This document shows positions 4,557 through 63,557 of a stretch of 64,000 nucleotides of DNA, piece by piece. This DNA comes from Minisyncoccota bacterium. GTDB taxonomy: Bacteria; Patescibacteriota; Minisyncoccia; Phycocordibacterales; UBA918. Below the pieces are notes generated by a model that saw only the letters and a program-made list of their open reading frames with translations, was not told where the DNA came from and ran no database searches. Position 1 is the stretch's first letter. The number at the start of each line of letters is the position of its first letter. The position numbers and the translations under genes were made by a program. The DNA is taken from contig JAIPIB010000002.1 in assembly GCA_021734905.1 (NCBI GenBank), positions 38,167-102,166 on the forward strand, read 5' to 3'.

Positions 4557-4837
4557 TAACGTTTCGAAGTCGGAGCGTTGTGAGTATCTTTCATAATGAG
4601 GCGAACAGCGAGGTGAGAAATGGGATGGAACCCATTTCGCAAGACCTTGAGCAATTTCTGTGAAAGGTGTACGGCGTCTGTAGGACGGTGTCAAAAGTGC
4701 TTAGAAAATCAGAACGCAGTGAATGATTTTACTTAGCAACTCGAGAGTAAGCGTTAACAAGAGCCAGTATGGACTTTTTGACAAAGTCTCATGCGAGGCG
4801 TAGAGTGCGTTCAGACAAATCTTGATATGGAGGAGTT

Positions 4838-5422
4838 ATGGTTACTCGAATTGTTTCTGTTGATTCTGATGAGCGGGGTCTTCTTCACGAACTGGTACTC
4901 AAGCAATTTCTCGACGGCGACTGCTATGCGTTCGCCCTAGCAGTAAGTGAGGGTACTAAATGGCCAATGGTTGGCCTTTTTGAAGGTTCAGTTGCACGTC
5001 ATGCCTGTATCAAGACTCCCGACGGAATGTTCTTCGATGCACGCGGCTTCGTTACTAATGAAGACATTGGTGCGCCGTTCGGTCTTTCCACGCCACACAA
5101 TATGAAATTGGTTTTTCCGAACGATCTTATTCGTGAAGGTGAGACAAAAGAGCGTGTCACGTGGGCAATTGCACGCGCAAGAACTTTTGCTGAGACACTA
5201 TGGCCAAATCTCCCGTGGGACACAAGTCACGTTGACAAGGTTCGTGGTTTTATTGACGAGCTTGAGATACTTTGCTTGAGGCATGGATTTTACATTAGTG
5301 CACAAATCCCTGGCATGCCACCAATGGTAGTGCCAATCGACGGAAATGAGGATGGGTACACAGCAACACAACTTATTGACGGTAGACAGTACTCGCTCAT
5401 GCGCAGATTCGTTGGTGAATAA
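4838..5422 (+). CDS. hypothetical protein (194 aa), GC-richer than neighbours
   Basis: Good SD (ggagg) 8 nt before the ATG. No recognisable motifs. The 280-bp spacer upstream is also GC-richer and contains hairpins. Confidence 0.5.
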   Translation: MVTRIVSVDSDERGLLHELVLKQFLDGDCYAFALAVSEGTKWPMVGLFEGSVARHACIKTPDGMFFDARGFVTNEDIGAPFGLSTPHNMKLVFPNDLIREGETKERVTWAIARARTFAETLWPNLPWDTSHVDKVRGFIDELEILCLRHGFYISAQIPGMPPMVVPIDGNEDGYTATQLIDGRQYSLMRRFVGE

Positions 5423-5451
5423 TTAGGGCTAGCATCGCTAGTCCTGCTTTT

Positions 5452-9124: not shown

Positions 9125-9139
9125 TTTTAAAATTAAGCA

Positions 9140-9176
9140 AAACCCCCGATGACTCCGTCACCGGGGGTTTTGCTTT
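9140..9176 (+). terminator. rho-independent terminator after dnaJ
   Basis: aaacccccg ... cgggggttt stem followed by ttttgctttg. Confidence 0.6.
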
Positions 9177-23723: not shown

Positions 23724-23849
23724 CTTAGCCCCCCCCTTTAGTTTTGATCAATTCACTTCATATATTATGTCACATATTTACGAATATACAATAGCTTTCA
23801 TTTGACCATACTTTAAAATGCTTATACAATCATAATTACTGATGACGCA

Positions 23850-24040
23850 GCTGACACTGCTGAGGTGAGAGAAGAAAGCTACAATGACTTTGTAGTAAGT
23901 AGAACTCTCCGTTTGGCACGACACGCCAACGATGAGCGCTCATGTCGCATACGACAGGGAAGTAGGGTGGCACCGCGGCAAAGACCGCCCCTACAAATAT
24001 ATTAGTAGGATATTAATATGTTTGTAGGGGCATTTTTTGT
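23850..24040 (+). promoter_or_regulatory. T-box riboswitch leader (tRNA-sensing) upstream of the class IIb aaRS gene
   Basis: Conserved T-box sequence AGGGTGGCACCGCGG at 23964-23978 (consensus AATTAGGGTGGNACCGCGG). F-box-like CCGTTT at 23909-23914. Stem-I-like helices (gagag...ctctc with AGTA-containing distal region). Palindromic stem III (atgagcgctcat). Intrinsic terminator gcccctacaaa...tttgtaggggc + T6 at 23987-24038, 25 nt before the ATG. Confidence 0.55.
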
Positions 24041-24062: not shown

Positions 24063-25421
24063 ATGGAAAGAATACTTATCGCAGAGCTTAAAAATAAACT
24101 TGAACAAGAAGTTACCATTCAAGGATCAGTCAACGTTGTCCGCAATCAAGGCAAGGTCGCTTTTTTTGACTTTAGAGACCGAACCGGAATCGTGCAGGGG
24201 GTTATCTTTGGAAAACCAGAACTACTCGAATCAGTAAAAGTACTTTCACCTGAATCAACAGTTACCGTAGTAGGTACAGTCCATGCACGACAAGAAAAAA
24301 TGATTAATCCGAATGTGCAAAATGGTGATATTGAGCTTGAAATAACAGCAGTTACTATTCTCTCACTTGCTGAAGCATTGCCGTTTGATCTCGATGCAGA
24401 TCTTAATATTGATACACTCCTTGATTACCGGCCACTCACTTTACGACGGAAGCATGAAAAGGCCATCTTTAAGATACAAAGTGAAATAGTTGCAGCCTAT
24501 GGAGCATTTATGCGCAGAGAAGGATTCACAGAGTTCCAGGCACCAAAACTTGTGGGTGGTGATGCAGAAGGGGGTGCTGAAGTATTTAAAGTAGACTACT
24601 TTAATGACCATAAAGCGTACCTCGCAACAAGTCCACAACTCTATAAACAAATCATGGTTGGTGTGTATGAACGTGTATTTACCTTCGCAACAGCATTCCG
24701 TGCTGAAAAGAGTGCGACCACACGACACCTCAGTGAATATACGTCTCTCGACGCCGAAATAGGCTTTATCGAAGACCATACTGACATTATGCGTATCGAG
24801 ACTGCACTCATGCGATACCTAGCAGAGCATCTTCACAACACCACACCAACAGAGCTTGCGGTACTTGGAATGGAAATTCCAAAACTTGGCGATAAGGACA
24901 CGCCACTATTTCCTCACATGAAACTCAGAGAAGCACAGCAACTTATCAAAGAAAAAACAGGAAAGGACAAAACGAATGAACCAGACCTTGAGCCTGAAGA
25001 TGAGCGATGGCTCTGTGAATACGCGCACAATGAACTTAGTAGTGACTTTATCTTTATCACACACTATCCAGTCTCAAAGCGTCCATTCTATACGTATGAA
25101 GATGAAGATGATCTCGGCTTTACAAAAAGCTTTGACTTACTCTTTAGGGGTGTTGAAATTACGACTGGTGGTCAACGTGTTCATGACGTGCAAACACTTC
25201 AAGAAAAAATGCGCGCAAAGAAACTCAATCCAGAAAACTTTGAATTCTACTTACAAATATTCAAAAATGGTATGCCTCCACACGGCGGATGGGGCATGGG
25301 ACTTGAGCGTCTTACTGCAAAATTCTGTGGTGTTCAGAATGTAAAGGAAGCAACCCTCTTCCCGCGTGATATTAACCGCATTGACACATTACTCACTAAG
25401 AATACCGAGCATGCAGATTAA
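24063..25421 (+). CDS. aspS: class IIb aminoacyl-tRNA synthetase, archaeal-type aspartyl-tRNA synthetase (AsnRS not excluded)
   Basis: N-terminal OB anticodon domain. Motif 2 FRAEKSATTRHLSEYTSLDAEIGF. Motif 3/C-terminus GMPPHGGWGMGLERLTAKFCGVQNVKEATLFPRDINRI resembles archaeal-type AspRS (FPRD.NRL) more than AsnRS (FPRTPR). The T-box bulge UGGC predicts a G73-discriminator tRNA (Asp/Asn, not Lys). Confidence 0.75.
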   Translation: MERILIAELKNKLEQEVTIQGSVNVVRNQGKVAFFDFRDRTGIVQGVIFGKPELLESVKVLSPESTVTVVGTVHARQEKMINPNVQNGDIELEITAVTILSLAEALPFDLDADLNIDTLLDYRPLTLRRKHEKAIFKIQSEIVAAYGAFMRREGFTEFQAPKLVGGDAEGGAEVFKVDYFNDHKAYLATSPQLYKQIMVGVYERVFTFATAFRAEKSATTRHLSEYTSLDAEIGFIEDHTDIMRIETALMRYLAEHLHNTTPTELAVLGMEIPKLGDKDTPLFPHMKLREAQQLIKEKTGKDKTNEPDLEPEDERWLCEYAHNELSSDFIFITHYPVSKRPFYTYEDEDDLGFTKSFDLLFRGVEITTGGQRVHDVQTLQEKMRAKKLNPENFEFYLQIFKNGMPPHGGWGMGLERLTAKFCGVQNVKEATLFPRDINRIDTLLTKNTEHAD

Positions 25422-26929: not shown

Positions 26930-29900
26930 ATGTATCTACGGCGACAGCATTTTTTAGTATGTGCGCTTCTGAGTTGCATTCTTGTCTTTGCTCCGGTCTC
27001 TCACACACAGGCATTCTCACTCGATGACTCATCTCTCTGGAGAGGTACTGCGACACTCTTTGCCGGTGTGAGTTCTTTCACCTGTGGCAGTTTCTTCTCG
27101 TACATACTCAATCCACTTGGTCTCTGTGCAACGCCCAACTTTGACGGGGAACCACTCGCACAGAACGATACCCTCCATGACGCAATGGAGGGAATTGTCC
27201 CCGATGAAACACCAACGACCATACCCATTGCACCAACGTACATCACCAATACATACAACACCAATCCAACCACTATCGTACGAGACACAGTGAGAGAGGT
27301 GGTCTACCATACCGAGAGTAATACACCACCTGATCTCTCTCAGTTTGTGACCCGTGACTTCGTGAATAAACAGTCCAATAGAATTTATGATGTTCAGGGA
27401 GATGCACAGAGTACCAATGCTGCATCATTCACCACCAATCTCCTCACGGTATCAGGGGACAGCACCGTATCAGGACTCCTTACTGTTGACGGTGCACTCT
27501 CATCACTCGCATACACCTCTGCACCATACCTCACTGCCACAGATGCTGCTGCCACCTCTACCTTTGCGGGTAGTGTGACGGTTGATGGGCGTGTGGGGAT
27601 TGGGACGACGAGTCCAAAACAAAAATTACATATTGTTGGTAACGCATATACAGAAACACTCATTGAATCTTTGACAGCTGATTCTGCACTGGCACTAAAA
27701 TATGCATCTGGAAACACTGGTGGCATGTTCTTTTACTCAGGTGCCACTGCTGCTGGGTCACTATATGGAGGCAATGATAACAGTCTCAACTTACAAACAT
27801 ACACAGCAAGCCCATTAAAGTTTCTTACAAGCGGAACTGAACGCATGCGTATTTCTGATACTGGAAATGTTGGGATAGGGATAGCTTCACCAAATACTAG
27901 ATTCCAAATTGTAAATGGGTCAGTTTCCGGAAATGACGCTTTTGCCCAGTTCGGAAGTACAGTTGGAGGAACAGGTGAACTAGGCTTGCAGTTTGGACGA
28001 AGTGGAGCTACGTCTGGTTCATTAATAATTCAAGGAGTAAAAGAAGGTACTGGAGCAAATAATTTGTCCCTTCAACCAAGTGGAGGAAACATCGGTATCG
28101 GCACCACCTCTCCAACCTCTAAACTTACCGTCAATGGTGACATACGCATAGAGACAGGCTCAGGAGGACAACTCATCTTTGCAGACGGAAGCACTATGTC
28201 CTCAGCAGCACTTGGTTCAGCAGCAGCACTCTCAAACATCACAGACGCCATCATCACCGGAGACTCAGACACCAACAGTTCAGGTAATATACTATTCAAA
28301 ACCGGCTCCAATGACCGTATGACCATACTAAACAATGGAAATGTGGGAATTGGGACAGTGGGTCCGGGAACACCTCTCCAAGTAAATCACGGAGGAGGAG
28401 CTGATGGTACGAGGCAAAATGTCCTGACAGTTTCTACTGCCGGTTCTGTTACCTATGGTGGGTATATCGGCAATCGTGCTGTATCTGCAAATACGCATCA
28501 AGGCATGTTTATTGAGGGAGGGGGATCTTTAACCCTTGGAGCAAAGAGCTATAACATTGATTTTATAACGGGTGCAGGCATTACTGCTAGTGGCGATACA
28601 AATTTGAGAATGCGAATAGATTCTTCAGGCAACGTCGGCATCGGCACGACAGAGCCGGGCCTGCGTCTGGAAACAAAAGCTGCGGCCGCTGGACTACCAG
28701 CCACTTCTGGCACATCGCAAACTGGAATTATGCGCTTGAGTCAGGGGATTGGCACTGGTGTGGTTGATTTTGGTTTTGGCGGAACGGCTGGATATGGTTG
28801 GATACAGGCTGTTGATAGTGGTAATTTAGCAACCAACTATGGATTATTGTTGAATCCAAACGGCGGCAACGTCGGTATCGGGACGACGAATCCAACACAG
28901 GAACTGACAGTATATGGTGCAGGAAACAATTCTACTGAAATTAATATAATAGAGCCGGATGCAGTCTCCGAATCAATAATTAATTTTGGCGATTCCATGT
29001 CAGGGACGGCACGATATGAAGGTAGAATCTCTTATAACCATACGACTAATGCTTTAAATCTCAGCACAAATCATTTGGTCAGCACGCCCGAACTGACATT
29101 AAAGAATGGAAACGTCGGTATTGGCGTCGCGTCACCGCAGGCAATGCTTGATATTGTTGGTAACGATACCATTCTTAAAGTACGCGACACAAGAACAACA
29201 GGAGGTAACGCGACTTTACAGCTACAGGCAGAAGGTCAGCTTGCCCAGCTTAAATTCTATTACGGAGACAGATTCGCTATCGATAATGGTGGAGGAACGG
29301 AATGGCTTACAATAAAGCAGAACGGAAACATTGGCATCGGCACCACTTCACCACAGGCAAAACTAAGCGTAAAGGGAAGTGGCACCGGTTCAGGCTTCCT
29401 CGCACAGTTCACCGACAGCGCAGATAGTCCCAAGTTCACGATTTTGGATAATGGAAATGTTGGGATTGGTACGGCGATCCCAGGGTCAAAATTAACTGTG
29501 CAAGGAGGAAGTTCGGGAGCTGTTGATTTTGCTGTTATGCATTCTACTGGGAATGCGGGATTGTATTTCTCAACTCTTGCAAGCGGTTCTGGTAGATTAG
29601 TTTTTGCTAATTCCGCAAGTACAATAGTTAACCAAATCGGTATTTCAGATAATGAATACACATACTTCAATAATGGTAACGTAGGTATAGGAACATCGAC
29701 GCCAAGCGCAAAGTTGGATGTGGTCGAAGGAATTATTAGAATTTCGGGCACAAGTGATGCATTCGACCAAACTTTATCTATTCAGAATAATGTGAACAAG
29801 GTTCTTAAGCTTACTGTGGGTTCTAACGGTGGAGGGACGGCATGGTACACACAGCCAAACACAGGAACTCTCGGCGTGGATACTGGGATGGATTTACGTT

Positions 29901-32389
29901 TCTCGGCTGGCGCAGCGGAACGAATGAGAGTTACAAGCGCTGGCAACGTCGGCATCAGCACCACCTCGCCATCAGCAAAACTCGACGTCTGGGGTAATTT
30001 GAAAGTAGGCACCAGTTCAACCCCTACGTTGTTTGTTGATGCCGCGAGCGGAAACGTCGGTATTGGTACAAATAATCCTACTGGTAAGATTCAAATCTAC
30101 GACAATACTGATGCCCTAATACAAAGCACGATAGTAAACGATAGCGCAGGTACTTCGGCATGGTCGAGAGTGGGGGCCGGTGCTAGTTTCTCATCCACAT
30201 TCGTAGAACATTTCAGTAATAGTTATTCAGGTACTGGAGCAAGGCAAACGGGATCAGGAAATCTAACGACAAGTGGTTCTGGGGGATTGAGTATTTCTAC
30301 AGAAACCGCATCAACACCAATTCGCTTTTATACAAGTGGACTCGCCGCATCGAATGAGCGTATGCGTATCGATTCAGCTGGCAACGTCGGTATCGGGACG
30401 ACGAGTCCACAAGGTTCTCTCACTATCAACAGTGGTCAATTTACTGTCCCTGTTGGATCTGCTGGAGCGCCATCAATTACATTTAATGACGATTTGAATA
30501 CTGGTATATATCATAATGCGGCAGATATCATGTCATTCTCTGCTGGTGGAAACACTATTTTTGAATTCTTTAATGATACAAATGGGGCTATTTCTAGAGT
30601 CGGTCTTCAACTTAAAGGTGTTACAGCAACAGGCATACCGTCACTCTCTTTTGCTTCGGATGTCGATACTGGATTCAGTTCTCCTGGTGTTAATATCGTT
30701 AGTCTGATTACTGGAGGAAATGAAAGACTACGCATCGATTCAGCTGGCAACGTCGGGATTGGGACAACAAATCCGCAGCGTATTCTTGATTTATCAAATA
30801 CTAGCGGGGTATTTCTAAGAGGAGACCGAACAAGTGGTGCGGGCGATGCACTGACTATTGTAGGCACAGGACAAGCTGCGGTTGAGGGAGCTCGAATGGT
30901 CATTAATATGGAAAACACTACTGATGCGTCTTCTAATATACAGTTTTATACGCACAATGGAGCTGCACTAGGCGAGAGAATGAGGATAACACAAGCCGGA
31001 AACGTCGGGATTGGCACCACTTCACCATCAGGCTTACTTCATGTACAAAAAGATCAAAATAGCCCAACAAGAATTCAAATTACAAATGAAAACACTGGGG
31101 CAAGTTCCCAAACTGGACTTATGGTTACAAACTCTGCACTTCCAAATTATTATTATACCGCAGGTTTAATGGGGACAAATTTTTCAACAAACGGTTTATT
31201 TGAACCAAATAAAGGTGTAATTTCAGTTGGAGGTGAAATTGATGGGTTAAATATTTTCACACAAAAATCTACAGCTCCATTAATCTTTGGAACTAACGGT
31301 GCGGAGAAAATGCGCATCTCAAACACTGGCAACGTCGGGATTGGAACAACATCACCAACATCAAGGCTCGATATAAAACAATCTGTTGATGCTTTCGGAG
31401 GCGGTATAAGATTAAATCAAGTCGCTGACTCCGATTACGCAGAAATTGTTTCTGCGGGCGATAGGTTGGTATTTGGTTTGAATGGGTATGAAAGAATATC
31501 GATATTAGAGAATGGTAACGTCGGAATTGGAACAACATCACCAACATACAAGTTAGAGGTGGCTGGCACCATAGCTTCAGAATCAAGCGGTGCATACAAC
31601 CTAGGAGCAGCAGGAAGAGACTGGGGATGTCTCTATTACAACTCAGGCACTCTCGGTACCTGCGCATCCGACGAAAGGCTCAAAGAGAACATCAAAACAC
31701 TCACCTTTACAAATGGCACAAGTACTGCACTCAATAAAGTCGCAAACCTTGAACTCCACACCTTTAACTTCAAGAATGCTCCAGGAAGTACCTACAAGGG
31801 ACTTATTGCACAGGAAGCACTCACTGTCGCACCAGAACTTGTTGAACTCGGTAGTGACGGATACTACCGAGTGAAGTACGGTGACATTCAATGGCTCGTC
31901 CTTGAAGCACTGAAGGAACTGTATGGAAAAGTGCAGGCACTACAAGATAAGTTTGTTGATGGTGTGCTAACACTTACGAGTGCCAATGTTGATTATGTTC
32001 AATCACGTGAAATTTGCCTTAGCGACGACACGGGAACAAGTTGTATTGATCGACAGAAACTTCAAAGATTGTTAGAAGGGGATGATGCTTTAAACAATTC
32101 AGATCAAGACAATGTGTCTACATCACAAGATCCTGAACCGACAACTGACACTGTGGATGATGATACGACCAATACAGCCTCATCTAGCGCCCAAGCAAAC
32201 ACCACCACAGAAGTCACTACCCAAGATGATGAGAATTCTGACATTTCACAAGAACAAACACCTACTGAATCTGATGTTATAACTACTCCCACTGAAGAGG
32301 AGGTGCCTTTAAGTGAGTCGACGGTTGAAAATCCTACTACCACTGAACCTGAAGTGACAACTCCAACAGAGACATCTCCTACTCAGTAG
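26930..32389 (+). CDS. giant secreted repeat-rich fibre protein with C-terminal Peptidase-S74 intramolecular chaperone (autocleavage) domain and acidic T/P/E-rich tail
   Basis: 1819 aa. Signal peptide MYLRRQHFLVCALLSCILVFAPVSHTQA. About 20 tandem 45-55 aa repeats carrying [ER]MRI.S.GNVGIGTTSP..KL.V. C-terminal block GAAGRDWGCLYYNSGTLGTCASDERLKENI...YKGLIAQEALTVAPELVE...YRVKYGDIQWLVLEALKEL matches the endosialidase/tail-fibre chaperone domain (S74) with catalytic Ser at 31667-31669. Confidence 0.85.
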   Translation: MYLRRQHFLVCALLSCILVFAPVSHTQAFSLDDSSLWRGTATLFAGVSSFTCGSFFSYILNPLGLCATPNFDGEPLAQNDTLHDAMEGIVPDETPTTIPIAPTYITNTYNTNPTTIVRDTVREVVYHTESNTPPDLSQFVTRDFVNKQSNRIYDVQGDAQSTNAASFTTNLLTVSGDSTVSGLLTVDGALSSLAYTSAPYLTATDAAATSTFAGSVTVDGRVGIGTTSPKQKLHIVGNAYTETLIESLTADSALALKYASGNTGGMFFYSGATAAGSLYGGNDNSLNLQTYTASPLKFLTSGTERMRISDTGNVGIGIASPNTRFQIVNGSVSGNDAFAQFGSTVGGTGELGLQFGRSGATSGSLIIQGVKEGTGANNLSLQPSGGNIGIGTTSPTSKLTVNGDIRIETGSGGQLIFADGSTMSSAALGSAAALSNITDAIITGDSDTNSSGNILFKTGSNDRMTILNNGNVGIGTVGPGTPLQVNHGGGADGTRQNVLTVSTAGSVTYGGYIGNRAVSANTHQGMFIEGGGSLTLGAKSYNIDFITGAGITASGDTNLRMRIDSSGNVGIGTTEPGLRLETKAAAAGLPATSGTSQTGIMRLSQGIGTGVVDFGFGGTAGYGWIQAVDSGNLATNYGLLLNPNGGNVGIGTTNPTQELTVYGAGNNSTEINIIEPDAVSESIINFGDSMSGTARYEGRISYNHTTNALNLSTNHLVSTPELTLKNGNVGIGVASPQAMLDIVGNDTILKVRDTRTTGGNATLQLQAEGQLAQLKFYYGDRFAIDNGGGTEWLTIKQNGNIGIGTTSPQAKLSVKGSGTGSGFLAQFTDSADSPKFTILDNGNVGIGTAIPGSKLTVQGGSSGAVDFAVMHSTGNAGLYFSTLASGSGRLVFANSASTIVNQIGISDNEYTYFNNGNVGIGTSTPSAKLDVVEGIIRISGTSDAFDQTLSIQNNVNKVLKLTVGSNGGGTAWYTQPNTGTLGVDTGMDLRFSAGAAERMRVTSAGNVGISTTSPSAKLDVWGNLKVGTSSTPTLFVDAASGNVGIGTNNPTGKIQIYDNTDALIQSTIVNDSAGTSAWSRVGAGASFSSTFVEHFSNSYSGTGARQTGSGNLTTSGSGGLSISTETASTPIRFYTSGLAASNERMRIDSAGNVGIGTTSPQGSLTINSGQFTVPVGSAGAPSITFNDDLNTGIYHNAADIMSFSAGGNTIFEFFNDTNGAISRVGLQLKGVTATGIPSLSFASDVDTGFSSPGVNIVSLITGGNERLRIDSAGNVGIGTTNPQRILDLSNTSGVFLRGDRTSGAGDALTIVGTGQAAVEGARMVINMENTTDASSNIQFYTHNGAALGERMRITQAGNVGIGTTSPSGLLHVQKDQNSPTRIQITNENTGASSQTGLMVTNSALPNYYYTAGLMGTNFSTNGLFEPNKGVISVGGEIDGLNIFTQKSTAPLIFGTNGAEKMRISNTGNVGIGTTSPTSRLDIKQSVDAFGGGIRLNQVADSDYAEIVSAGDRLVFGLNGYERISILENGNVGIGTTSPTYKLEVAGTIASESSGAYNLGAAGRDWGCLYYNSGTLGTCASDERLKENIKTLTFTNGTSTALNKVANLELHTFNFKNAPGSTYKGLIAQEALTVAPELVELGSDGYYRVKYGDIQWLVLEALKELYGKVQALQDKFVDGVLTLTSANVDYVQSREICLSDDTGTSCIDRQKLQRLLEGDDALNNSDQDNVSTSQDPEPTTDTVDDDTTNTASSSAQANTTTEVTTQDDENSDISQEQTPTESDVITTPTEEEVPLSESTVENPTTTEPEVTTPTETSPTQ
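27590..31560 (+). repeat. in-frame coding tandem repeats (GNVGIGT units) inside the fibre gene
   Basis: Recurrent nucleotide units aacgtcgg(c/t)at(c/t)gg(c/g)ac(c/g)ac and peptide GNVGIGTTSP occur about 20 times. Confidence 0.7.
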
Positions 32390-58986: not shown

Positions 58987-59035
58987 TGAAGTATTCTAGC
59001 ATGGGTTATGTGATAGTATAGGGATATAATTTTTA

Positions 59036-59500
59036 ATGACTATGGAATTACATACACAAATTAAAGAGGAGCTAAAAACGGCAATGAAAGCACATGATGC
59101 AGTCAAACTTCGTACAGTACGTGGAATGCTTACCGCTTTTACTAATGAACTCGTCGCTACAGGAAGCACTCCCCAGGGAATGCTTCCTGATGAAAATGTG
59201 CTTGGAGTTATCAAACGACTTGCGAAGCAGCGAAAGGAATCCATTGTGCAATACGAAGCAGCGGGACGTACTGATCTCTCTGAACCAGAGAAAGAGGAAT
59301 TGGTAGTTCTCAATTCGTACCTTCCACAAATGATGTCTCGTGATGAAATTCGTCCGGTAGTAGCAAAAAAGATTTCTGAACTCGGGGATGTCGACAAAAC
59401 TAAAATTGGAATACTTATCGGCTCACTTATGAAAGAATTTAATGGGAAAGCAGAAGGTGGTGACATTAAAGCTGTAGTTGAAGAGCTGTTGGCGAAATAA
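59036..59500 (+). CDS. GatB/YqeY domain protein
   Basis: MTMELHTQIKEELKTAMKAHDAVKLRTVRGMLTAFTNELV matches the YqeY family. Confidence 0.8.
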   Translation: MTMELHTQIKEELKTAMKAHDAVKLRTVRGMLTAFTNELVATGSTPQGMLPDENVLGVIKRLAKQRKESIVQYEAAGRTDLSEPEKEELVVLNSYLPQMMSRDEIRPVVAKKISELGDVDKTKIGILIGSLMKEFNGKAEGGDIKAVVEELLAK

Positions 59501-59566
59501 ACTTTTTAGCTTGTAATTTTTCCTAGGCAAACATATAGTGTGTGTTGTTCTTCTTGGAGAAACGCA

Positions 59567-59755
59567 ATGAACAAAAAATTTGTTTCAGTAACTCGAATAA
59601 GAGATGGTCGAGGAGACGCTGATCTCAGTACACACCTTCGCTCACTCCGTAAGTCAGGAGTTTCCTTTCCACCCATCAATCCAGAAATCGACAAGGATAG
59701 ATCCAAGAGGACGAAACGATCGTGTATGCTAAAGATACCCAAATTAGCTATATAA
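59567..59755 (+). CDS. small basic hypothetical protein (62 aa)
   Basis: The in-frame ATG with SD ggag (MNKKFVSVTRIRDGRGDADLSTHLRSLRKS...) is followed by a 13-bp perfect hairpin (59764-59792). Confidence 0.35.
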   Translation: MNKKFVSVTRIRDGRGDADLSTHLRSLRKSGVSFPPINPEIDKDRSKRTKRSCMLKIPKLAI

Positions 59756-59805
59756 CACGAACAATGCCCGAAGCGCTAAGCGCTTCGGGCATTTCTAGTA
59801 TACTA

Positions 59806-59834
59806 TTGACATTGCTACTGATTCATTAGATAAT
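59806..59834 (+). promoter_or_regulatory. sigma70-like promoter
   Basis: TTGACA (59806-59811), 17-nt spacer, GATAAT (59829-59834). Upstream of the 59881 gene. Confidence 0.45.
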
Positions 59835-59880
59835 ATCTATAGAGAAGTTCCCCTATCCAATAATTCATAAGGAGTCAAAG

Positions 59881-60186
59881 ATGGGTTCTACAATAGTCTG
59901 TCATGCCTTAGGTGAAAATATGGTGATGGTAAATTTAAGCATATTTGTTGTAACCTTTGAAAAAAAAGCGGACGGATCTGCAAAGTTTGTCACCAAAGTA
60001 AAAACAGTCGGGGACGGTCGGGTTTCGATTCCTGAAGGAATGTACATACAGATGAAGGAGGCTGCCAACTCATTTTTCAGGGGAGAAACAAAACCCAAAG
60101 AAATTCCAGATGAAACTGAACTTAACCACATGCGAACTCGGTGTGCAAAAGTTCGAGCGAGTCTCGGAAAATGTACAAAAGTGTGA
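59881..60186 (+). CDS. hypothetical protein with possible AbrB/MazE-like swapped-hairpin motif
   Basis: SD aaggag. VKTVGDGRVSIPEGMY resembles the AbrB/SpoVT/MazE signature (d..GRv.IPke). Terminator 60189-60222 (ggccagaaacgc ttt gcgtttctggcc + T-run). Confidence 0.4.
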   Translation: MGSTIVCHALGENMVMVNLSIFVVTFEKKADGSAKFVTKVKTVGDGRVSIPEGMYIQMKEAANSFFRGETKPKEIPDETELNHMRTRCAKVRASLGKCTKV

Positions 60187-60238
60187 TGGGCCAGAAACGC
60201 TTTGCGTTTCTGGCCATTTTTATATCAAACTCATGCCA

Positions 60239-60266
60239 TTGACAAACACAATATTTAACATATAAT
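60239..60266 (+). promoter_or_regulatory. consensus sigma70 promoter
   Basis: TTGACA (60239-60244), 16-nt spacer, TATAAT (60261-60266). SD aaaggag and ATG at 60296 follow. Confidence 0.5.
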
Positions 60267-60295
60267 CTTCCAGTGCAATTTCAAAGGAGCTCGTA

Positions 60296-60625
60296 ATGCA
60301 ACAGGTTCTAGAACGAACGAAACGTAAGGTTGTTCTTTCGCGAGATCAAGAAGGATTCATCTCTGCAACACTAATTTGTCCACTTATGACATTTTCCAGC
60401 ATGCGTCATTTTGCACACCGAATGCATAATTTTCTTGCTTCCTCAGAAGCCGTGGCGCTTGCATGTACAGCTGCACATGTACCTGACGGAAGAAGTTTTA
60501 CCGTCATCTTAAATCCACAAAAGAAACCGGACGAAATGCAAAAACGATTGGAAAATTTTAAATCAGCCCTCATAATGATTGTGGGTAGCGATGAAATTGT
60601 TGCTGATTTCAAAAGTTTGAATTAA
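60296..60625 (+). CDS. hypothetical protein (109 aa)
   Basis: Own promoter and SD. Followed by terminator 60648-60675 (gacatcgc ttat gcggtgtc + T7). Confidence 0.4.
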   Translation: MQQVLERTKRKVVLSRDQEGFISATLICPLMTFSSMRHFAHRMHNFLASSEAVALACTAAHVPDGRSFTVILNPQKKPDEMQKRLENFKSALIMIVGSDEIVADFKSLN

Positions 60626-60763
60626 CCCATACCCTACCAACCTACAGGACATCGCTTATGCGGTGTCTTTTTTTGTCTACAAAGTATAACCAAGATATCT
60701 ACCCTTGACAAGGTGAATAATTAAATGTACTGTATTTGTTGATTTGTTCACAAGGAGAATCAC

Positions 60764-61087
60764 ATGCGCCAACTACGTGTTGCACTGACACAAATTGACC
60801 ACCGTCCCGTTGCTGAGGTGCGAATTCCACCACCCGATGGGCTGCGTGTGCTTGAAGTAATCCAACGTATAGAAAACGAACTCGGTGGAGGAATTTATCG
60901 AGACCTCGACATTGCCGTAATCGACGAAGGAACGTGGGCAATCACATTGCGTGTTTACCCTCACGCTGAAATCGATACACTCAACAGAATGTTGCTCTTG
61001 CAATGGGCGACAAAACGTCTTGTTGAATTTTCGCCGGCGATCGATATAACGAACCTCCGTGAGATACAAAAAAGGGTCCTGCACTAA
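60764..61087 (+). CDS. hypothetical protein (107 aa), GC-richer
   Basis: TTGACA at 60705-60710 upstream, SD aaggag. Followed by tandem hairpin terminators at 61102-61168. Confidence 0.4.
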   Translation: MRQLRVALTQIDHRPVAEVRIPPPDGLRVLEVIQRIENELGGGIYRDLDIAVIDEGTWAITLRVYPHAEIDTLNRMLLLQWATKRLVEFSPAIDITNLREIQKRVLH

Positions 61088-61101
61088 TTTGTGCATGGTT
61101 T

Positions 61102-61131
61102 CCAAAAAAGGCGTTGTTTGCAACGCCTTTT
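61102..61131. terminator. bidirectional terminator between the 60764 gene and truB
   Basis: aaaaaa ggcgttg tttg caacgcc tttt. Confidence 0.5.
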
Positions 61132-61172
61132 GTTTTGTCCGACGAAGGCTTTGCCTTCGTCGGTTTTATGTT

Positions 61173-61838
61173 TCATTTAGCCAATTCCCTCGCCTCTTTA
61201 ACGTCAAACTCGCCAATTTTTGTTCGCCTTAAATTCTGAAGTGTTGCAGGATACCCAAGCCTCCTCCCAATCTCTTCTGCAAGCGAACGAATGTACGTAC
61301 CACTCCCGACATGAAAACGCACAGTTACCACACATCGATTTTTGCCACACTTAATTCCCATTAGTTCTGCCTCATACACTTTCATTTCGCGCATTGGTAT
61401 ATCTACAACAACATTGCCTGTTTTCTCAGCCTTTCGCGCTCGTTTGTACATTGGTACCCCATCTTTCTTAATGGCTGAGTATGCAGAAACTGGAAGTACT
61501 ATAGTACCAATCATTTCACCTAAAAATTTTTTTACTTCCTTTTCATCAAGGTAGCTGACATCTTTTTCTTCGAGAATTACTCCCTCCAAATCTCCTGTCG
61601 AACGTTTCTCGCCAATGCGAATTTCTGCAACGTATTCTTTATCTAGTTTAAGAAAACTTTCAAGTTTTTTAGTCCCCTTTTCAATTCCAACAATCATGAG
61701 CCCTGTAGCAAGTGGGTCAAGCGTTCCAGCATGACCCATTTTGCGAATACCTAACTCTTTCCGCAATCGACGAATGACATCAAAGGAAGTTATTCCCTTT
61801 GGCTTATCGATTAGGATAATATCCTGTAAATCTTCCAT
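61173..61838 (-). CDS. truB: tRNA pseudouridine(55) synthase
   Basis: LIDKPKGITSFDVIRRLRKELGIRKMGHAGTLDPLATGLMIVGIEKGTK catalytic Asp motif. Short form lacking PUA domain. Confidence 0.85.
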   Translation of the reverse strand: MEDLQDIILIDKPKGITSFDVIRRLRKELGIRKMGHAGTLDPLATGLMIVGIEKGTKKLESFLKLDKEYVAEIRIGEKRSTGDLEGVILEEKDVSYLDEKEVKKFLGEMIGTIVLPVSAYSAIKKDGVPMYKRARKAEKTGNVVVDIPMREMKVYEAELMGIKCGKNRCVVTVRFHVGSGTYIRSLAEEIGRRLGYPATLQNLRRTKIGEFDVKEARELAK

Positions 61839-61867: not shown

Positions 61868-63112
61868 TTACAAGACGAGAAGCGATGGATTTAAAGCGAG
61901 AATAAATCCAAGTGCGAGCATCAAGAGACCACCTATGAGTAAGGACAGTTGCGAGTATTTGTGTCCATTTGACTCTAAGCTAGAAAATCCCCAGATAGCT
62001 AGACCGAACACAACAACATCATCAACCATATATCCAAGCGTGTATACCAAAATATAGAATTGTTGCATTACAAAATCCAAATTGTTAATTTCAAGAATCT
62101 TCGTATATGCCTGCGGAATGCCGATAGAACACGCGAACTCAATAACATTGACCGAGAAAGCGAGAGCAATAATTGCAAGCAGGGTAAAAATAGTCGTTGG
62201 TCGTGTAACAAGGTCTTTAATACGCTCAGTTGTCGCGTGTTGAGAATCCATATCACTCACATCACACACAAGAGGTTTGTTTCTATTCTTTCTATATCGA
62301 TATAAAAAGAATGTACCGCCACCAATGGCAAGGAGTCCAATAAGTGGTGTCACAATTGCATCAAGCCCTACAAAGTCCCATGTCTTAAACCAAATATTCA
62401 AAATTAGGTTATACATTATCGCTTCTGCAACAATGAATATTCCCGCAGTCAAAATCATTTTTCGTCTATCCCCTATCTGGGAAAGAAGAACTAAAAATGT
62501 AATAAGCACCCACATCGCGCACGGATTAAAACCATCGATAGTGCCGAGAACTGCTGAGAGTGAAAAAAGCGAAAAAGTCTTGAGGTCTACAATACCCAAA
62601 AAGGGTAGCTTGAAAACAAATTCGTTAGGATTTTTAATTGAATTACACTCTTTTCCCTCCTTATCACATCCTTCTCCGTCCAAAACATCTGATTGTTTTA
62701 CTGCTCTCTCTATATGGTCTTCAATTGTTCTAAAATCACTGTCATGCGCTCTTAGAACAGCATCCTTAATCATTACTCCTGTTGTCTCTGGAGCATTAAA
62801 GCCCTGAATGACTTCCCCTCCGACCACAGTGAGTGGCGTTACCTGTGAGAGTTCATGTTTTTCAATTAGTCTGTTGAAGTAATCAGCAGCTTCTTTATCA
62901 TCAATAATATTATGGTACTCATAAATGACATTCTCAGTCTCTGAAACATACATATCCAAAAAAGCCTTTTCGGCAACACAATGTGCGCAATCATCACGTC
63001 CAAAAAGAAAAACCGAAATGATTTCATTATGTGCCTGAACTTTCGTTTGAAATGCTGTGAATAAAACTACAAAAACTGCCAATGTAATACCAAAATTTTT
63101 CATGTTTATCAT
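61868..63112 (-). CDS. thiol:disulfide oxidoreductase-like membrane protein (thioredoxin-like CxxC domain fused to CcdA/DsbD-like TM domain)
   Basis: Signal peptide, then periplasmic CAHC (FLFGRDDCAHCVAEKAFL), then 6-8 TM helices with intramembrane cysteines (GFNPCAMW, EFACSIG). The start is set at ATG 63112 (MINMKNF). The track ORF extends to 63202. Confidence 0.5.
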   Translation of the reverse strand: MINMKNFGITLAVFVVLFTAFQTKVQAHNEIISVFLFGRDDCAHCVAEKAFLDMYVSETENVIYEYHNIIDDKEAADYFNRLIEKHELSQVTPLTVVGGEVIQGFNAPETTGVMIKDAVLRAHDSDFRTIEDHIERAVKQSDVLDGEGCDKEGKECNSIKNPNEFVFKLPFLGIVDLKTFSLFSLSAVLGTIDGFNPCAMWVLITFLVLLSQIGDRRKMILTAGIFIVAEAIMYNLILNIWFKTWDFVGLDAIVTPLIGLLAIGGGTFFLYRYRKNRNKPLVCDVSDMDSQHATTERIKDLVTRPTTIFTLLAIIALAFSVNVIEFACSIGIPQAYTKILEINNLDFVMQQFYILVYTLGYMVDDVVVFGLAIWGFSSLESNGHKYSQLSLLIGGLLMLALGFILALNPSLLVL

Positions 63113-63140
63113 AATAGCATCAACCTCTAAATACCCTAAA

Positions 63141-63557
63141 CTATATCTCCACAGCGATCGCATCAAGTGATACTGCGCGTAACTGTGCCCTGCGCACGAC
63201 ATAATCTGGTAAGGCCAGCTCTACATGTTCCCAGAATCGCGCCGAGTGATTAAGCTCAGCAAGGTGACAAAGCTCATGAACAATAATGTAGTCAATGAGT
63301 AACTCAGGAAGAAAAATAATCCTATAATTAAAATTAAGATTTCTTTTTGAAGAGCAACTTCCCCACCGAGATTTTTGATTTCGAATAGCTACACGCTTAT
63401 AGAGATGTTTATAAAATTCGTTCCAATATGCCAAGCGCACCTCCACAACAGCTCGAGCTTTTTCTTTGTGCGCTTCATAGTGCGCTTGTGAGGATTTTGA
63501 TACAGAACGTCTTTTACGCCGATATATTTTTCTTTTAAAAATCCACTGAATACCCAT
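63141..63557 (-). CDS. YgjP-like (DUF45/WLM-type) zinc metallohydrolase
   Basis: HELCHLAELNHSARFW motif typical of DUF45. Confidence 0.7.
   Translation of the reverse strand: MGIQWIFKRKIYRRKRRSVSKSSQAHYEAHKEKARAVVEVRLAYWNEFYKHLYKRVAIRNQKSRWGSCSSKRNLNFNYRIIFLPELLIDYIIVHELCHLAELNHSARFWEHVELALPDYVVRRAQLRAVSLDAIAVEI

Follow-up and report, generated by a model that had tools for sequence, protein, structure and literature searches.

Whether a cluster of small orphan genes surrounded by strong expression signals was imported recently or belongs to its lineage is the question raised by a locus in a 64-kb stretch of DNA from a Minisyncoccota bacterium (contig JAIPIB010000002.1; this whole stretch is called the window below). 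Between yqeY and truB, an island of 1.65 kb contains four small open reading frames (ORF1 to ORF4; 62, 101, 109 and 107 aa), all of them at the positions given in a first-pass annotation, which regarded them as autonomous, recently acquired cargo. In the tiny genomes of Patescibacteria (the candidate phyla radiation, CPR), many lineage-specific small proteins lack an explanation. The explanation preferred here, to which a probability of roughly 70% was assigned, is that the region is a recombining small-gene slot conserved in the lineage, and that ORF2, ORF3 and ORF4 are inherited, real and fast-evolving genes. The region would then represent, in the window genome, a variable slot that is found across the lineage at the junction where the yqeY and truB units of Paceibacteria-type Patescibacteria converge.

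The yqeY-truB slot in related genomes

Related loci were fetched by TruB and YqeY (160 loci), and 75 complete slots bounded by both genes were obtained. The gene order YgjP-P444-TruB/YqeY-RmuC was kept in about 100 Patescibacteria loci, and YqeY was 59-85% identical across about 100 related loci. The gap between yqeY and truB ranged from 26 to 3032 bp (median 1251 bp), and the slots were occupied by one to six ORFs, about 60-200 codons long and oriented like yqeY. When the 285 slot ORFs were clustered iteratively, 40 families and 106 singletons with a patchy distribution resulted. Most relatives held unrelated families, and the slot was empty in two loci (26 bp in L156 and 32 bp in L154), which agrees with the earlier view that these genes are accessory and not core. 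A Pfam domain was found in two of 78 slot representatives, one a PemK/MazF toxin and the other a Phd/YefM antitoxin. Both families (F34/F35) were observed in the slots of L030 and L133, with E-values of 8e-09 for the antitoxin and 2e-18 for the toxin. Compared with long genes of the same loci, slot genes more frequently had a promoter of at least 10/12 (23% versus 5%; the sigma-70 promoter score is the number of matches out of 12 to the -35/-10 consensus), a Shine-Dalgarno (SD) motif (51% versus 4%) and a terminator (37% versus 13%).

In the closest genome relatives, a module consisting of a terminator, a TTGACA promoter, an SD, an ORF of about 100 aa and a terminator was repeated three to four times. 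The slot of the window reads ORF1, F1, F3, F3, where F1 and F3 are slot clusters (ORF2 belongs to F1, ORF3 and ORF4 to F3). The order F1-F3-F3 recurred in L085 and, with another subtype of the first gene, in L087. L083 contained F1, F3 and an unrelated gene, and L082 contained two unclustered genes, the first of which resembled the ORF2 subfamily (F1a) by eye only, followed by F3. Regulatory elements between the genes were conserved as well. The -35 region of ORF3, CATTGACAAA, was kept in L085, L083 and L087, and the SD motif of ORF4, CACAAGGAGA, was kept in L085 and L083. The ORF2 terminator was orthologous to hairpins in these two loci, where the position of the ORF4 promoter was occupied by a better promoter, TTGACG-17-TATAGT. 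Because of the orthologous intergenic modules and the recurring gene order, the array is considered to be ancestral to the nearest clade rather than a recent import, and judging from these alignments ORF2, ORF3 and ORF4 were inherited with the gene order seen in the nearest relatives. The claim of recent acquisition is thus not supported, and the native GC content and codon usage of ORF2 and ORF3 also speak against it. Synteny across the lineage had been proposed as a sign of core status; the order is kept in the nearest clade and not lineage-wide. A GC content above that of the genome, which had been reported for several of the small genes, was true of ORF4 alone (0.49 versus 0.41 for the window; ORF1 to ORF3, 0.40-0.42).

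The proteins of the slot change much more rapidly than those of its core flanks: nonsynonymous divergence (dN) of the window from L085 was 0.59-1.03 for slot genes versus 0.09-0.40 for five flanking genes. Word-indexed protein searches returned only the proteins themselves, and no homologs of the island proteins were found by tblastn against species-representative genomes. The homologs described below came from the metagenome loci and from an exhaustive HMMER search only.

Replacement of genes within the slot

Possible signs of recombination were mosaic identity profiles with sharp boundaries, read from identity and synonymous divergence (dS). In the pair L083/L085, the flanks were 84-95% identical with a dS of 0.5-1.2. 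The first slot gene of this pair had a hyper-divergent centre (43-67% identity), the second (L083 2068-2379) was 97-100% identical, and the third was unalignable, with similarity stopping within a few bases of the start codon and with the terminator, -35, -10 and SD conserved just upstream of the break. Since the dS of the second gene was 0.06 against 0.5-1.2 in the flanks, a recent exchange of this single cassette between the L083 and L085 lineages is suggested. In the pair L123/L124, yqeY and truB were 95-96% identical, and an identity of at least 90% was maintained to the SD and ATG of the last gene, beyond which it was random. In the pair L085/L087, yqeY was 86.5% identical and about 85% identity continued through the 118-nt terminator-promoter-SD module after yqeY; no similarity was found beyond the ATG, the whole downstream array having diverged or been replaced. 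All three close genome pairs have the break precisely at the ATG of an ORF or array that was replaced, with the promoter and SD in front of it conserved.

Across the lineage, the slot content turns over by duplication and by replacement of cassettes or arrays. Replacement would take place by homologous recombination, with crossovers in the core flanks and in those intergenic modules that are conserved. The retained internal regulatory modules would act as boundaries, so that ORFs are swapped under the same promoter. No recombinase or integrase Pfam domain was found on the called genes of the 15.7-kb neighbourhood, which encodes RmuC, YqeY, TruB, RecR, DnaB and CysRS, and no att-like or attC-like sites or repeats were found in the array.

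Coding status of the four ORFs

None of the four proteins had a significant match in Pfam, PHROGs, PADLOC or NCBIfam. In GenBank and Logan, ORF2 to ORF4 are labelled as hypothetical proteins with conflicting starts (86 or 101 aa for ORF2 and 79 or 109 aa for ORF3). The codon-model score was 0.20-0.26 per codon for all four ORFs, 0.40-0.42 for core genes and 0.06-0.08 for spurious antisense ORFs. ORF2, ORF3 and ORF4 are taken to be genuine protein-coding genes, since they have protein-level relatives where the DNA is unalignable, the coding scores are positive, the fold of ORF4 is predicted with confidence, and dN/dS is low (0.15 for the ORF2-subfamily gene in the L083/L085 pair, versus 0.02-0.03 for the flanks). 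The spacing of the SDs favours the long forms of ORF2 (101 aa) and ORF3 (109 aa). No RNA genes were found in the island by Rfam and tRNA scans, which gave sub-threshold, terminator-like matches only.

In all likelihood, ORF1 is no autonomous gene. No homolog was found in any search, and the protein is absent from a collection of 15 billion proteins, which implies that it has never been called by any pipeline. Its coding score (0.20 per codon) lies between those of spurious ORFs and core genes (0.40). In the relatives L082-L087, a strong terminator is located about 15 nt or less after yqeY and the first slot gene begins at about +116, unlike the window, where about 265 extra nt containing ORF1 lie between the yqeY stop codon and the first hairpin. 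The fold z-score of the ORF1 region was accounted for by this hairpin. As there is no terminator between yqeY and ORF1 and the first hairpin is without a good U-run, ORF1 is not an insulated unit.

Promoters, Shine-Dalgarno sites and terminators

The promoters, SDs and terminators are listed in Table 1 together with the genes. These signals would make ORF2, ORF3 and ORF4 independent transcription units, each with a sigma-70 promoter, an AAGGAG SD and an intrinsic terminator, and the description of the ORFs as autonomous insulated units therefore stands for these three, not for ORF1. Near-consensus promoters had been assigned to the array, and this was confirmed for ORF2 and ORF3; the -10 element of ORF4 is poor, and the site before ORF1 is at chance level (20 sites of the 9/12 level were found versus 14.6 +/- 4.2 expected). 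Both strands of the window contained five sites of at least 11/12, two of them in the island and the grpE promoter being another; outside the island, a 12/12 promoter was found for grpE alone. The strong SDs were likewise present in ORF2 to ORF4, with ORF1 having GGAG only. Correctly spaced AAGGAG precedes some seven genuine gene starts of the window, three of which are ORF2, ORF3 and ORF4. Canonical SDs (about seven AAGGAG-N6-7-start sites) are rare at the core genes of the window, unlike the island genes.

All five hairpins described as terminators of the array exist, the first of them without a good U-run. In a 6-kb scan, 14 terminator-like sites were found versus 4.6 +/- 2.1 expected in shuffled sequences (a threefold excess), and of the roughly 14 long-stem, T-tailed hairpins of the window, five fall inside the island. 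The island hairpins are regarded as terminators because they are unrelated to each other in sequence, perfect and short, with a T-run 3' of the stem. An assignment as attC, REP (repetitive extragenic palindromic) or other repeat elements was rejected, the hairpins being mutually unrelated and the array containing no repeat family. No repeated motif was found between the genes of the array, where nothing beyond the generic -35 and SD consensus recurs.

Table 1 Genes and candidate expression signals of the yqeY-truB slot in the window (pI, isoelectric point)
Feature	Position	Strand	Description and basis
yqeY, left flank of slot	59036..59500	+	Pfam YqeY 9e-40
Weak promoter-like site before ORF1	59511..59539	+	TTGTAA-17-TATAGT (9/12); score at chance frequency
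ORF1, doubtful gene	59567..59755	+	62 aa, pI 11
Hairpin	59763..59793	+	Perfect, 14 bp, weak U-tract; likely terminator of the yqeY(-ORF1) transcript
ORF2 promoter	59806..59834	+	TTGACA-17-GATAAT (11/12); consensus scan
ORF2 SD	59869..59874	+	AAGGAG, 6 nt 5' of ATG
ORF2	59881..60186	+	101 aa, pI 9.3, slot subfamily F1a
ORF2 terminator	60189..60215	+	12-bp stem and T-run
ORF3 promoter	60239..60266	+	TTGACA-16-TATAAT (12/12); consensus scan
ORF3 SD	60284..60289	+	AAGGAG, 6 nt 5' of ATG
ORF3	60296..60625	+	109 aa, pI 9.1, family F3, tandem copy 1
ORF3 terminator	60646..60669	+	10-bp stem and T7
ORF4 promoter	60705..60733	+	-35 TTGACA, spacer 17, weak -10 TACTGT (9/12); read from sequence
ORF4 SD	60752..60757	+	AAGGAG, 6 nt 5' of ATG
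ORF4	60764..61087	+	107 aa, pI 6.3, GC 0.49, family F3, tandem copy 2
Hairpin between A-run and T-run	61106..61131	.	ORF4 terminator, probably also that of truB (bidirectional)
Second hairpin 3' of ORF4	61139..61163	+	11-bp stem and T-run
truB, right flank, convergent with the array	61173..61838	-	Pfam TruB_N 2.5e-37; synteny

The ORF3/ORF4 family

Relatives of ORF3 were found in L087 (35% identity, E = 2e-13) and L085 (25%), and those of ORF4 in L085 (42%, 1e-20) and L087 (31%). ORF3 was also 40-42% identical to the proteins P0006 and P0007. In the HMMER search over 1.84 billion representatives, only five non-self relatives were obtained, all of them of ORF3 and ORF4. The two proteins recruited each other in iterative jackhmmer searches. 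In L085 and L083, the gene in the middle of the slot was matched by the profiles of both the ORF3 and the ORF4 subfamily, built separately (E about 5e-5 and 7e-3), and these bridging genes beat every shuffled decoy (best decoy E 0.46 or worse). In a comparison of the two subfamily profiles by hhalign, 79 collinear columns were aligned with P = 3e-4. These results give moderate support to ORF3 and ORF4 as remote paralogs in tandem, belonging to a single new family (F3) with proteins of about 105 aa. In the sequence examined, F3 was confined to the yqeY-truB slot. Most proteins of the F3 alignment (A1) end in histidine (...LH, ...KH, ...TH), and D94 of ORF4 is nearly invariant in it, as is an NP motif before helix 2.

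None of 15 F3 members matched Pfam, and no sequence relative of F3 was found in the PDB, where profiles of F3 and F1a had marginal matches only, to de novo designed alpha/beta or leucine-rich repeat proteins. A structure of ORF4 was modelled from an alignment of seven sequences, with a predicted local distance difference test (pLDDT) score of 76.8 and a predicted template modelling (pTM) score of 0.68. The predicted beta-beta-alpha-beta-beta-alpha fold resembles type III secretion chaperones and DCoH. Sequence identity of F3 to SycN/SycH/CesT-fold chaperones, the YbjN family and PCD/DCoH was 7-19%, without sequence or profile match, and a fold search of BFVD gave nothing significant. No secretion genes were seen in the neighbourhood of the array or elsewhere in the window, which differs from the setting of class I chaperones of type III secretion.

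ORF2 and the AbrB/MazE motif

ORF2 had relatives in the metagenome loci L138 and L140 (26% identity, about 1e-3), with a phmmer score of 20.8 bits against a maximum of 3.2 in shuffles. For ORF2, nothing was found when 1.84 billion representatives were searched exhaustively with HMMER. The alignment of its subfamily (A3) showed a common beta-rich N-terminal part and the motif G..x[VI]P[DE]x[IVF][YF]..A...A, with G..VIP-[DE]-x-[IV]-Y as the defining helix motif. The stretch GDGRVSIPEGMY of ORF2 forms the conserved core of the subfamily, in which the GRVSIP motif of ORF2 is conserved. The hidden Markov model (HMM) of this subfamily matched yqeY-truB slots only, in the sequence examined. Treating the cluster F1 as a single family was rejected, for single linkage has chained at least two types together in it, and its leave-one-out profile misses ORF2.

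The AbrB/MazE/SpoVT domain has the topology beta1-beta2-alpha-beta3-beta4 and about 45-50 aa. A motif resembling this fold had been noted in ORF2, and the motif does exist and is conserved. ORF2 shares with the domain a local arrangement of beta-strand-G-R-V-x-I-P-helix over 21 residues, in which VKTVGD-GRVSIPEGMY is matched against AbrB VRKVDELGRVVIPIEL; for beta3-beta4, the other half of the domain, ORF2 has no equivalent. Pfam gave nothing for ORF2 at E <= 1 nor for six subfamily members at E <= 10, and the subfamily profile found no AbrB, MazE or SpoVT chain among all PDB sequences at E <= 10. When A3 was compared by hhalign with an AbrB/Abh/SpoVT/MazE alignment, whose sequences were entered by hand, 21 columns only were aligned, with a probability of 4.1%. 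An AbrB/MazE relationship of ORF2 is thus not supported by these searches. The single-sequence AlphaFold2 model of ORF2 (E-E-E-E-H-H) had a pLDDT of 50.9 and was too poor to judge the fold. Moreover, ORF2 appears to have its own terminator, without a toxin partner or co-transcription.

Comparison with known systems and alternative explanations

In chromosomal hotspots free of mobile genetic elements (MGEs), diversification has been attributed to homologous recombination in the conserved flanking regions (Oliveira et al. 2017, PMC5635113). The yqeY-truB slot is similar in being a fixed, core-bounded interval with high family turnover and without an integrase or mobile element, and its diversification would agree with double homologous recombination in the conserved flanks. 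It differs in being tiny (at most 3 kb) and in containing nearly exclusively co-oriented, monocistronic genes of about 100 codons. Its crossovers apparently also use the internal terminator-promoter-SD modules, with swaps of single ORFs. The slot thus fits such MGE-free hotspots, with the cassette swap as the twist, and carries a new tandem-paralog family. The array also differs from type II toxin-antitoxin systems: a terminator and a separate promoter lie between each pair of genes, no toxin family was found in the window array with Pfam, PADLOC or NCBIfam, and ORF3 and ORF4 are read as paralogs, not as toxin and antitoxin. Integron cassette arrays consist of an IntI integrase and an attC site after each cassette, whereas the neighbourhood of the slot has no integrase and its hairpins are read as terminators, not attC.

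Through the strong signals, small cytoplasmic proteins that are not enzymes and bind other proteins would be expressed abundantly and in an insulated manner, and the turnover pattern would suit proteins engaged in conflict (immunity, anti-defence) or in host interaction; both are weaker suggestions than that of replacement by homologous recombination. Considering the strong signals, the small soluble proteins without catalytic signature and the chaperone- or adaptor-like fold of F3, our best guess is that the slot products may be small factors, made in abundance, that bind proteins and take part in conflict or host interaction. The latter part is also drawn from dispensability (the empty slots of L154 and L156), rapid divergence, family turnover and the occasional toxin-antitoxin pair. 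The nearest functional analogy may be the rAID orphan-immunity arrays of Bacteroidales, which are defined by a recombinase and repeated intergenic motifs and whose products neutralise toxins (PMC12247911). Likewise, the slot contains co-oriented, short, rapidly diverging orphan genes for which strong expression is expected, three to four genes of 62-109 codons in the window and one to six in relatives. The differences are that a tyrosine recombinase is absent nearby, that the intergenic modules keep their sequence from genome to genome at a given position and are not repeated along the array, that each slot gene has its own terminator, and that the slot proteins have no similarity to known immunity families and no context of a type VI secretion system (T6SS).

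A tentative alternative carries this analogy further and takes the slot as a platform for small neutralising proteins, that is, an orphan-immunity or anti-defence array resembling rAID without a dedicated recombinase. It refines the preferred explanation functionally and does not contradict it. The short co-oriented genes, their strong signals, rapid divergence and family turnover, and the MazF/Phd pair in the same slot of L030 and L133 are in its favour, against which stand the lack of matches to PADLOC or known immunity families, of a recombinase in the 15-kb neighbourhood and of a repeated intergenic motif in the array. Lineage-specific, fast-evolving housekeeping proteins, such as translation or tRNA factors tied to yqeY and truB, would explain why the position beside tRNA- and translation-related genes is kept across the lineage, why the expression signals match those of grpE in strength and why ORF1 to ORF3 are basic (pI 9-11). 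This is improbable given the empty slots, the unrelated families in most relatives and the replacement of whole cassettes between genomes about 90% identical. Still less credit was given to recently acquired foreign cargo with ORF2 as an AbrB/MazE-type antitoxin or regulator, to which the autonomous signals, the GC of ORF4, the orphan status of the genes and the local alignment of the ORF2 motif with AbrB would point. The island proteins have no match to phage or defence families, the nearest relatives have positional orthologs in the same order with orthologous regulatory modules, ORF1 to ORF3 are native in GC and codon usage, the AbrB comparisons with Pfam, PDB profiles and hhalign gave no more than the short alignment described above, and ORF2 is monocistronic without a toxin.

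A phage moron has its own promoter and terminator and a GC content deviating from its neighbours, within a phage or prophage genome (PMC3594210). ORF2 and ORF3, and ORF4 with its weaker -10, resemble such units in having a putative promoter-gene-terminator arrangement around a small accessory protein, and the GC of ORF4 does deviate. An origin as a moron or prophage remnant is nonetheless very unlikely: no phage genes, integrase or att-like repeats are nearby, no significant PHROGs match or BFVD fold match was obtained, and the slot with its regulatory modules is chromosomal, located between core genes, common to the lineage and inherited in order within the clade, with native GC in ORF2 and ORF3. 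Least likely of all, the ORFs could be non-functional, the hairpins and promoters merely insulating the convergent yqeY and truB units. The orphan status of the proteins and coding scores below those of core genes could be understood in this way. For ORF2 to ORF4 this is contradicted by the protein conservation of F3 and F1a across genomes with unalignable DNA, the dN/dS of 0.15, the perfectly spaced SDs and the confident fold prediction.

Several points weigh against the preferred explanation of a recombining, lineage-conserved slot. Inheritance is read from distant comparisons, the nearest relative having a YqeY of 85% identity, and the start-codon breakpoints come from three pairs, too few for a rule. 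Promoters and terminators are consensus matches only, and 76 of the 78 slot family representatives are without a Pfam domain. The link of ORF2 to the wider F1 is weak, with the leave-one-out HMM missing it, and the hhalign probability for the paralogy of ORF3 and ORF4 was only 38%. The F3 fold is of a simple two-layer alpha/beta type whose matches are below significance (none at E <= 1e-3 in Foldseek), and ORF3 and ORF4 (pI 9.1 and 6.3) are not acidic, unlike type III chaperones.

A bolder version of the preferred explanation, which we consider possible and rather doubtful, is a recombinase-free 'expression socket', in which position-specific terminator-promoter-SD modules under purifying selection would be both strong constitutive expression signals and joints for homologous recombination, and single small ORFs would pass between genomes with breaks at the start codon. 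The slot would then be a cassette platform like integrons or rAID arrays, operated by housekeeping recombination only.

Other features of the window

The 444-aa protein adjoining truB (61868-63202, - strand) has a weak glutaredoxin-like N-terminus without clear Pfam assignment, and is 52-78% identical across the lineage. Upstream of the array, yqeY has no SD and a TATAAT box (59025-59030) ends 5 nt 5' of its ATG (59036), from which it follows that the yqeY mRNA may be leaderless. Another autonomous unit (4778-5446, + strand) consists of a 10/12 promoter (4778), an orphan ORF of 194 aa (4838-5422) and a terminator (5424-5446), directly preceding the 12/12 promoter of grpE (5452). The 194-aa protein has no Pfam match and is not a grpE paralog (BLASTP E = 0.65).

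Upstream of a gene for a class II Asp/Asn/Lys-type tRNA synthetase (24063-25421), the region 23802-24040 (+ strand) contains a promoter-like TTGACC-17-TACAAT and a leader of about 190 nt with AGGGTGGCACCGCGG and a terminator with a 21-bp stem. The leader matched the Rfam T-box with 39.9 bits (gathering score 93, E = 1e-7), and its stem I has 4 nt versus 74 model positions. By its sequence, this leader is a divergent T-box with a short stem I, missed at the gathering threshold. An ORF of 1819 aa (26930-32389, + strand), whose sole Pfam match is Peptidase_S74 (endosialidase chaperone) near residue 1600, looks like a large surface or fibre-like protein. At 9135-9175 (- strand), a GC-rich hairpin with a 19-bp stem (AAGCAAAACCCCCGGTGAC...) between A and T runs is probably a strong bidirectional terminator.

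Implications

For genome annotation, three 'hypothetical' genes are real, with starts fixed by perfectly spaced SDs, and empty word-indexed searches can overlook positional orthologs at 25-40% identity. For the biology of Patescibacteria, about 100 genomes offer at the yqeY-truB junction a locus of comparable position, in which small proteins would arise, duplicate and be swapped under strong expression signals, and F3 and F1a are candidate small-protein families for symbiont-host or phage conflict. If the pattern of conserved promoters and swapped ORFs is general, it would show how accessory genes are renewed in organisms with few mobile elements. Should the 'expression socket' be true, it would provide minimal-genome symbionts with rapidly renewable small protein-binding factors for immunity or host interaction, and its payloads would include the new chaperone-like family of ORF3 and ORF4.

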